From: a virus
UHGV virus genome: UHGV-1729168
Length of the DNA stretch: 13,353 nucleotides
Direction: 5' to 3' (one strand)
How positions within the stretch are numbered: position 1 is the first letter of the stretch; every line of letters begins with the position of its first letter. This document shows positions 12,001 through 13,353 of the stretch, piece by piece. Made by a program: the position numbers.

Positions 12001-13353
12001 GGACAAGCAGGAGATGGATCCGTTTGCAGAGCTGGAAAATGCTCTGTTATTTGCCTCAGAGAATTAATGTCAACCTTGCGGGTATTTATTACAGTATTTT
12101 TGGGGGAAATTAACTGAATGGAGTTATTTTATGAAGAAATTCATGTTGTTGATTTTCTCTGTAAGTTTTTTTCTGACGGGGTGTGCAACCATTGTCGGAG
12201 ATAAAACGCAGACTGTACAGGTAAACAGTAATCCGGCTGGCGCGGATTTTATTATTAAAGATGAGTCAGGGAAAACAATTTCTTCGGGTAAAACACCGCA
12301 GAATGTAACACTTGAAAAATCAGATGGCAGTTACTTCGGGAAAAAGAGTTATCAGATCACATTCAGTAAAGAGAATTATCAGCCCGTAACGCTGCCGATC
12401 AAGGCATCGGCTAATGGCTGGTATATTGGTGGTAACTTTGTCTTTGGTGGTATTGTTGGCTGGTTGCTTGTGGACCCATTCAATGGCGGCATGTATACAC
12501 TGAGTCCGGGAAGTCTGAATCCCGGGCTGGTACCCGAAACTTAATCAATAATCTGCTGATGAATAAAACCTGCTGCGGCAGGTTTTTTTTCGCCCGGAGA
12601 AAGGTGAATGGCGACGTTACGTGAACTGATTATCAAAATTTCGGCAAATTCGCAGTCATTCCAGTCGGAGATCCAGCGGGCTTCCCGCATGGGCAGTGAA
12701 TATTACCGGACCCTGCAGAATGGCGGGCGTCAGGCTGCCGCAGTCGCCCGGGAGCAGCGACGCGCCCTGGCTGAGCTGAACAGCCAGTTGACGGAAATCC
12801 GCGCTTCAGCTGCCGGAACGGCGGGGGCATTTGCAGGTGCCTTTGCCACCGGGCACCTGATTTCTCTGGCCGATGAATGGAGTTCCGTGAATGCCCGACT
12901 GAAACAGGCGTCGCAGTCATCCGATGAATTTTCGTCATCACAGAAAGTGCTGATGGATATCAGCCAGCGGACGGGCACGGCATTTTCAGATAATGCGGCC
13001 CTGTTTGCCCGCTCGGCAGCCTCAATGCGTGAATATGGTTACAGTGCTGATGATGTGCTGAAGGTGACGGAGGCCATTTCGACAGGACTGAAACTGTCAG
13101 GGGCTGGAGTTGCGGAATCCGGTTCGGTGATCACCCAGCTCAGCCAGGCACTGGCACAGGGTGTACTGCGTGGCGAAGAATTTAATGCTGTTAACGAAAA
13201 TGGCGACCGGGTGATCCGCGCGCTTGCTGCGGGGATGGGTGTGGCCCGTAAAGATCTGAAGGCAATGGCGGATGACGGAAAACTGACAGCGGATAAAGTG
13301 GTCCCTGCGTTAATCAGCCAGCTGGGGGTATTGCGTGATGAATATGCGGCCAT

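Follow-up and report, generated by a model that had tools for sequence, protein, structure and literature searches.

A lipoprotein gene from a very large, uncharacterised family as alternative cargo of the HK97 gene-15 slot

UHGV virus genome UHGV-1729168, analysed here as a stretch of 13,353 nucleotides (nt) called the window below, covers the late (packaging, head and tail) region of a lambdoid, HK97-type Escherichia coli prophage. Between the T segment of its tail chaperone and its tape-measure gene lies a gene for a lipoprotein of 137 amino acids (aa). We identify this gene as a moron, an accessory gene gained by horizontal transfer, which sits in the T/tape-measure slot of an HK97-type tail operon. 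It is an alternative cargo of the slot that gene 15 occupies in HK97, and it comes from a very large, uncharacterised family of bacterial lipoproteins.

The assignment to the gene-15 slot follows from the shared gene order and from the adjoining tape-measure protein, whose first 248 residues are 83% identical to HK97 gp16. In HK97, the T stop is followed by 57 nt, gene 15 (62 aa), a terminator, 12 nt and the tape-measure gene. The window has the same succession of T stop, short leader, small envelope-protein gene and hairpin terminator, with the tape-measure start 12-18 nt after the hairpin in both. Gene 15, for which the term moron was first used, is likewise an AT-rich add-on derived from a bacterial envelope-protein family (PMC3594210). 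Its product is expressed from the prophage and excludes superinfecting phages, with an effect that depends on the tail region of the incoming phage (PMC3594210). Only the slot is shared, however: gp15 and the lipoprotein are unrelated (hhalign probability 2.1%, 7 aligned columns), and gp15 is a 62-aa inner-membrane protein with a C-terminus that has diverged from YebO, whereas the 137-aa lipoprotein has not diverged from its bacterial relatives. Likewise, exclusion has been demonstrated for gp15, whereas for the lipoprotein it can be proposed by analogy only. A first-pass annotation, made from the window's sequence alone, had guessed at lysogenic conversion or exclusion by likeness to other morons; with the slot shared with HK97 gene 15, this analogy is stronger than that annotation knew.

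The inserted gene and its junction

The features of the junction are the following:

11388..11762, + strand: tail assembly chaperone gene G, part of the upstream backbone (Pfam Phage_TAC_1, E=1.7e-61, full length)
11753..11759, + strand: A AAA AAG slippery heptamer at the end of G, putative site of a -1 frameshift giving a G-T fusion (T lies in the -1 frame of G)
11786..12067, + strand: T segment of the tail chaperone (Pfam Phage_tail_T, E=1.8e-18)
12068..12130, + strand: leader of the inserted cassette, 63 nt, sequence absent from BP-4795
12131..12544, + strand: lipoprotein gene, 137 aa, an open reading frame of the PHROG 6823 / epsilon34 gp15 family (PHROG 6823 E=5e-73)
12564..12589, + strand: intrinsic-terminator-like hairpin (9-bp stem, TGCG loop, T8), recognised by fold and inverted repeat and shared with relatives lacking the insert
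12608..13353, + strand: 5' part of the tape-measure gene (ATG at 12608), which runs off the window (Pfam TMP_3, E=1.4e-48)

A gene G that ends in a slippery heptamer, with T in the -1 frame, is the usual G/GT arrangement. By the lambda G/GT paradigm, the heptamer of the window probably serves the same frameshift.

The lipoprotein gene is an addition: related phages have its two neighbours side by side. Its base composition is also unlike that of these neighbours. The GC content of the insert (12068-12547) is 0.419, against 0.569 for G and T and 0.568 for the available part of the tape-measure gene, and values this low occur in only 1.7% of the 480-nt windows of the sequence. In BP-4795 and in Shiga toxin (Stx)-converting phages, T and the tape-measure gene adjoin each other with no lipoprotein gene between them (51 nt separate the two in BP-4795). 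When 11388-13353 was compared by megablast with 50,697 phage records, 94 records matched, mainly Stx-converting phages plus BP-4795, and all of them aligned in two pieces that skip the lipoprotein gene. Across 5,426 complete E. coli genomes, the T/tape-measure junction was found at 2,905 places in 1,245 genomes, and the lipoprotein gene in only five genomes; more than 99% of the equivalent junctions lack it. These results bear out the first-pass annotation, which had described a unit at 12068-12590, with a 137-aa lipoprotein and lower GC than its surroundings, as a moron that interrupts a conserved G/GT-to-tape-measure junction. The identical protein is encoded on 445 contigs, E. coli ED1a included, always at the same position.

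Its location inside the tail operon, and this location only, would fit a tail-assembly or virion component encoded between T and the tape-measure gene. Yet the gene is missing from over 99% of near-identical junctions in functional phage types (BP-4795, Stx phages), its product bears a lipoprotein export signal (see below), and homologues are found in podophages, which have no tape measure, as well as on chromosomes away from phage genes. Because it is absent from almost all sister junctions and carries an export signal, we rejected a tail-assembly role, which is extremely improbable. The first-pass annotation would have given up its proposal had the homologues proved to be ordinary tail components conserved at this position, which they are not.

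The limits of the insert could be placed by alignment. The T stop codon (TAA, 12065-12067) is its left edge; the last ~45 nt of T have diverged from BP-4795 and HK97 but can still be aligned. After the lipoprotein stop, the sequence TAA-tcAATAAT..GATGAA..AAACCTGC matches the BP-4795 sequence that follows the T stop. The extra DNA therefore spans from just past the T stop to the lipoprotein stop, and the cassette extends over 12068-12547, its own stop codon included. No flanking direct repeats or target-site duplication were found at the insert, where only chance-level 9-mers are repeated. The gene is under purifying selection: compared with alleles of the window clade that are 94-97% identical, the ratio of non-synonymous to synonymous substitution rates (dN/dS) is 0.09-0.12, and changes in this clade are limited to the signal peptide and the last residues.

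The hairpin downstream of the gene has the form AAAACCTGC-TGCG-GCAGGTTTT followed by T8. The 56-nt stretch that holds it (12545-12600) folds with -18.7 kcal/mol (z=-3.2), and none of 200 shuffled sequences was as stable. The same hairpin and T-run lie between T and the tape-measure gene of BP-4795, almost base for base, although this phage has no insert. The hairpin thus belongs to the junction and was not brought by the cassette; the first-pass annotation, which counted a strong terminator among the parts of the inserted unit, needs correction on this point. Analogous hairpins precede the tape-measure start in HK97, in the related loci L024, L026, L027 and L101 and in the Proteus locus L013, with stems that differ by lineage. 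A hairpin with a T-run was in fact seen upstream of the tape-measure start at every T/tape-measure junction examined, with the slot empty or filled. Such a terminator-like element within the tail operon may make the slot permissive for morons.

As the first-pass annotation had noted, the gene has a strong Shine-Dalgarno (SD) sequence, GGAG at 12120-12123, 7 nt ahead of the ATG. The possible promoter that it had placed in 12069-12100 fared less well. The best sigma-70-like candidate, ATGTCA (12067-12072) and TACAGT (12090-12095) with a 17-nt spacer, has 8 of 12 matches and falls below the threshold of the promoter scanner, which called no promoter on the + strand. The leader folds no better than shuffled sequences (z=-0.3), and Rfam gave no match above threshold in the leader or after the gene. 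Since no convincing promoter was recognised for the window copy, it may be expressed from a weak one at the T stop or by late read-through. Transcripts started upstream of the gene would end at the pre-existing hairpin, before the tape-measure gene, and antiterminated late transcription would read through it.

Most other enterobacterial copies have a conserved upstream block that the window copy lacks; the leader of the window clade, 63 nt long, is a different one. In most copies of the epsilon34 type it comprises TTCACA-17-TAGGAT together with an element resembling an RcsB box. Upstream of many enterobacterial homologues we observed TA(A/G)GAT(G/A/C)TTTC(C/T)GA, an exact match to the box consensus TN(G/A)GAN4TC(T/C)NA of RcsB, a regulator of envelope stress (PMC7913699). 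We counted 64 unique upstream regions, of which 10 contain the motif, compared with ~1% of shuffled sequences; it lies at about -35 to -39 from the ATG (L025, L026, L003, L102, L103, L108, L110 and L112). It also provides one half of an inverted repeat, ATGTTTCC-N13-GGAAACAT, the other half of which, on the 3' side, covers the ribosome site; in L103, the two halves have changed together (ATATTTCC/GGAAATAT). Both the RcsB-box-like motif and the SD-sequestering inverted repeat are absent from the window copy and thus cannot account for its regulation.

The lipoprotein and its family

The predicted parts of the protein are encoded as follows:

12131..12184, + strand: signal peptide (residues 1-17) and lipobox L-T-G-C with Cys18, read from the translation; Cys18 and Ala19 are invariant in 40 homologues
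12206..12412, + strand: predicted beta-sandwich domain (residues 26-94), PEGA/transthyretin/CnaB-like, from a structural model
12416..12472, + strand: glycine-faced hydrophobic helix GWYIGGNFVFGGIVGWLLV (residues 96-114), modelled as a helix over 96-113 with low confidence (~55, see below)
12470..12496, + strand: conserved VDPFNGGMY motif (residues 114-122), followed by a short strand

The N-terminus, MKKFMLLIFSVSFFLTGC, has a basic n-region, a hydrophobic core and the sequence L-T-G-C, which conforms to the lipobox pattern [LVI][ASTVI][GAS]C. The residue at +2 is Ala (invariant) and that at +3 is Thr; there is no Asp at +2, so that the Lol avoidance signal is absent and sorting to the outer membrane is predicted, in agreement with the outer-membrane-type lipobox of the first-pass annotation. 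By the Lgt/Lsp/Lol rules, the product would be exported, lipidated at Cys18 and, given its Ala at +2, directed to the outer membrane, where it would sit in the inner leaflet.

An AlphaFold2 model built with the 40 homologues has a mean predicted local distance difference test score (pLDDT) of 79. Residues 26-94 form a confident beta-sandwich of six strands (pLDDT mostly ~95), which would be presented in the periplasm at the outer membrane. The first-pass annotation had called this part a PEGA-like beta domain. The predicted fold agrees with it; the Pfam profile does not, as PEGA (PF08308) matches residues 27-91 with 18.2 bits (E=0.0024), below the cut-off of 20.8. Judging by the model, the protein is PEGA-like in shape only, having a beta-sandwich of the same general class. 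A sequence search of solved structures gave only marginal matches, to CnaB-type adhesin repeats.

The segment that follows had been described as glycine-zipper-like. Indeed, the predicted helix 96-114 displays five glycines (G96, G100, G106, G107 and G110) on one face, but the Pfam glycine-zipper families (SlyB/Pcp type) do not match the protein at E<=1, and the resemblance is architectural only. With a summed Hessa-scale value of +3.9 kcal/mol and a mean Kyte-Doolittle value of 1.36, the helix is too weakly hydrophobic for a classical stop-transfer segment. The short strand right after VDPFNGGMY (residues 122-125) is again confident (pLDDT ~89). The helix and this motif are the most conserved part of the family: N95, G96, Y98, I99, N102, G106 and G110, then D115, P116, G119, M121 and Y122 are invariant in the 40 homologues. 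This conservation points to a specific contact, by self-association or by docking on a partner, rather than to a mere anchor. We suggest that the glycine-faced helix and VDPxNGGMY would mediate self-association or docking on a conserved envelope component.

The first-pass annotation had found no specific family match, but one exists. The PHROG 6823 profile aligns residues 2-137 with profile positions 1-136 of 139 (E=5.1e-73), and the product of Salmonella phage epsilon34 gene 15 is 68.6% identical; the function of this PHROG family is not annotated. A profile search returned 5,437 representatives of 50%-identity clusters, 2,022 of them at E<=1e-10. A scan of species genomes placed the family in many Proteobacteria at 50-72% identity, with hosts among the Enterobacterales, Pasteurellaceae, Halomonadaceae, Shewanella, Marinobacter, Nitrosomonas, Zoogloea, delta-proteobacterial metagenome-assembled genomes and others. 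Across the aligned homologues of Enterobacterales and Pasteurellaceae, 27 positions are invariant. Many non-enteric members have a C-terminal extension of ~35 aa and a few have long low-complexity tails; nine of ten longer homologues are without extra domains, and the tenth is fused to an OmpA-like barrel (possibly a gene-call fusion). In E. coli we found the family in prophage contexts only, with no chromosomal copy found in this work.

Other family assignments were tried and dropped. Spanin, entericidin and type VI secretion system immunity lipoprotein families of NCBIfam match weakly (E 0.004-0.2) and over the signal peptide only. With YceK (COG5645, a label from one source), hhalign aligned only 14 columns around the lipobox, and Pfam DUF1375 does not match the lipoprotein at E<=1. 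Like the window gene, lambda bor and lom are late-region morons that encode host-derived outer-membrane proteins or lipoproteins with many non-phage homologues. The lipoprotein is a member of neither the Bor nor the Lom family, since it has no Pfam match except the sub-threshold one to PEGA.

Recurrence beside DNA-delivery genes and the proposed function

At least five tail lineages have the gene immediately ahead of a tape-measure gene. In L024 and L026/L027, a lipoprotein gene with a 69% identical product lies directly upstream of a tape-measure gene of the HK97_TLTM/TMP_3 type. The lipoprotein gene also directly precedes the L101 tape measure, which is matched only by Tape_meas_lam_C, has a different N-terminus and goes with a TAC_13 chaperone, and the TMP_2-type tape measures of L025 and of Proteus prophages, which go with TAC_4/DUF1799 chaperones. 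Three genomes carry it between I and J.

In ~70 P22-like genomes, the lipoprotein gene lies between ejection-protein gene 16 and mnt, the interval that holds sieA in P22 (see also PMC10883804; PMC2629481). Among the 50,697 phage records, only epsilon34 (gene 15), Gally and vB_EcoP-720R6 match the lipoprotein, even at E<=1; they carry true homologues, 68-69% identical over the full length. Like the window gene, the copies of this type are stand-alone genes followed by a terminator; unlike it, they sit in the 'ant moron' of P22-like podophages. SieA prevents DNA entry, its action is directed at the ejection proteins encoded nearby, and phages overcome it through changes in genes 16 and 20 (PMC10883804). 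The lipoprotein gene thus fills the sieA interval in P22-like phages, although SieA spans the inner membrane several times and is unrelated to the lipoprotein in sequence. None of ~73 P22-like loci combined P22-type sieA with the lipoprotein gene; other SieA sequence types were not searched for.

Two further observations concern these sites. In the Proteus loci L013-L017, a cluster of extra genes between the chaperone and tape-measure genes holds a homologue of P22 orf59a (4309-4491, - strand), a gene that lies between sieA and mnt in P22 itself (L178, 3741-3920). At least two cargo families are thus common to both moron hot spots. In Gally and 720R6 (L003/L004), another lipoprotein gene (3378-3893, - strand; 171 aa, lipobox LLAGC) immediately precedes the homologue, in the opposite orientation; its product is unrelated to P22 SieA.

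From position and precedent, a role in lysogenic or envelope conversion is plausible. The lipoprotein would have no part in tail building; its selected benefit would be an altered lysogen envelope, which would most likely keep superinfecting phages from delivering their DNA once they have adsorbed. We propose superinfection exclusion tentatively, as a possibility that falls somewhat short of even. The proposal is drawn by analogy from the slot shared with HK97 gp15, from the interval shared with sieA and from the precedents of exclusion by phage lipoproteins and tail-operon morons. Small phage lipoproteins that change the envelope include T5 Llp, phi80/N15 Cor, the Lpp proteins of mEp021 and mEp010 and Ltp of Streptococcus phage TP-J34. 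The Lpp lipoproteins of mEp021 and mEp010 are exclusion proteins and, like the window gene, several exclusion lipoproteins are encoded within structural gene clusters (PMC11893012). P-FimU is another precedent (PMC12952977), and Ltp targets the tape-measure protein, as cited in PMC10883804. No sequence relation to the window family was detected for Llp, Cor, Lpp and Ltp among the phage records at E<=1, and these proteins are narrow in distribution, whereas the window family is broadly chromosomal and highly conserved.

Several results weigh against exclusion. The family is mostly chromosomal and its members stand alone among housekeeping genes, for instance beside murJ/argS in Photorhabdus, near a lipid A acyltransferase gene in Lonsdalea and throughout the Halomonadaceae; there is no conserved chromosomal partner gene, the best neighbour cluster (13 of 78 loci) being a PAS-GGDEF-EAL protein in Halomonadaceae. 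The E. coli prophage and Halomonas copies are still 50-57% identical, and the phage copies keep all invariant residues. Such conservation looks like that of a cellular envelope function rather than of an exclusion protein caught in an arms race. Copies that are 68-75% identical are found both in podophages, which have ejection proteins, and in siphophages, which have tape measures; since the delivery machines of the carriers differ, a specific grip on one of them is unlikely. The recurrent position may only reflect insertion-tolerant sites in late operons and recombination through shared flanks, an argument made for the P22 'ant moron' (PMC2629481). PADLOC-DB returned no defence family at E<=1, and a literature search on the family, on PHROG 6823 and on any tested homologue found nothing. 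Finally, the scanner result and the weak 8/12 promoter candidate make expression of the window copy in an uninduced lysogen uncertain.

Much of this evidence would fit general envelope-fitness cargo, by which the prophage provides its E. coli host with an outer-membrane lipoprotein that is conserved among gammaproteobacteria. Its task would then be the housekeeping one of the chromosomal relatives, for instance keeping the outer membrane, or its link to the cell wall, stable or organised, or conferring tolerance of stress or serum as lambda Bor does, and any phage effects would be incidental. The ~5,400 cluster representatives, the housekeeping neighbourhoods of the chromosomal copies, with no defence or phage genes, and the restriction of E. 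coli members to prophage contexts all agree with it. So do the dN/dS of ~0.1, the 27 invariant positions, the 50-57% identity of the Halomonadaceae copies, the absence of divergence in the phage copies, the single fusion to an OmpA-like barrel and the RcsB-box-like motif upstream of many enterobacterial copies. This explanation nevertheless leaves unaccounted for why phage copies lie beside tape-measure or ejection genes in many unrelated backbones; moreover, the window copy lacks the RcsB-like motif and the chromosomal members have no known phenotype. We regard it as a serious contender, with a likelihood of roughly one third.

A third explanation is receptor masking of the Cor/Llp type, in which one outer-membrane receptor would be bound from the periplasm and adsorption or triggering blocked. 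The lysogen would thereby be protected or, if the protein were made late, progeny would be kept from loss on cell debris. That the tail operon encodes a small lipoprotein of outer-membrane type agrees with this mechanism; without its own promoter the protein would be made late, which would suit protection from debris. Structural-cluster lipoproteins of temperate E. coli phages do exclude phages that use OmpA or LamB (PMC11893012), and the homologue fused to an OmpA-like barrel would also fit. On the other hand, the carriers have no specific receptor in common, as they include O-antigen-binding P22-like podophages with varied tailspikes besides siphophages of E. coli, Proteus and other hosts, and the receptor repertoires of the bacteria that have chromosomal orthologues are unrelated. 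Pfam, NCBIfam and PADLOC gave no match beyond the signal peptide except the weak one to PEGA. Receptor masking is, in our judgement, quite unlikely.

Exclusion, our preferred reading, can also be cast in a broader form. Temperate phages would have acquired members of a large, uncharacterised outer-membrane lipoprotein family again and again and placed them next to the genes for DNA delivery (tape measure, ejection proteins, J). The protein would exclude siphophages and podophages alike by targeting a conserved part of the host envelope, such as the cell wall or an OmpA-like barrel, rather than a phage protein; the native envelope role of the chromosomal copies would be what the phages exploit. 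We consider this version speculative and unlikely.

If the lipoprotein blocks phage entry, the HK97 gene-15 slot would be a site for swappable exclusion cassettes with at least three states (empty, gp15 and lipoprotein), and a family of ~5,400 clusters would gain its first phenotype. If it has no effect on phages, it would be one more, ordinary case of prophages moving conserved envelope proteins between hosts. The gene is small and self-contained, and E. coli, on whose chromosome the present work found no copy outside prophages, is a clean background for it.

Other genes of the window and of its relatives

Beside the genes described above, the window encodes an HNH endonuclease, the small and large terminase subunits, a portal protein, head-completion proteins and a tail tube protein with an immunoglobulin domain. 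A product of 645 aa (4723-6660) is annotated in relatives as a fused protease and capsid protein. Directly upstream of the terminase genes are the genes of a small DUF3950 protein (1539-1739, - strand) and of the HNH endonuclease (1781-2146, + strand). Between the portal and the head-tail connector, 8233-9132 (+ strand) encodes a repeat protein with units like PVPRDGRDYDPDVLQKAV.DAV. It has 299 aa here and 353 or 407 aa (also 371) in relatives (L005, L007, L010), that is, steps of 54 aa, and gives a weak C-terminal match to CBM_5_12.

The window holds another AT-rich lipoprotein moron, the first in map order, at 1066-1407 (+ strand; GC 0.44). Its 113-aa product has the lipobox LVMGC and a TonB C-terminal domain (Pfam TonB_C, E=1.4e-14). 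Carried by a phage and anchored by lipid, such a domain could disturb the TonB-dependent receptors on which phages and colicins rely.

Downstream of the point that corresponds to the window's end, some relatives that encode the identical lipoprotein (L005, L007, L009, L010 and L012) carry a porin gene between tail genes M and L, at ~10260-11425 (387 aa; Porin_1/Porin_4). The porin gene is a second envelope moron of the same tail operon; L006 is without it.

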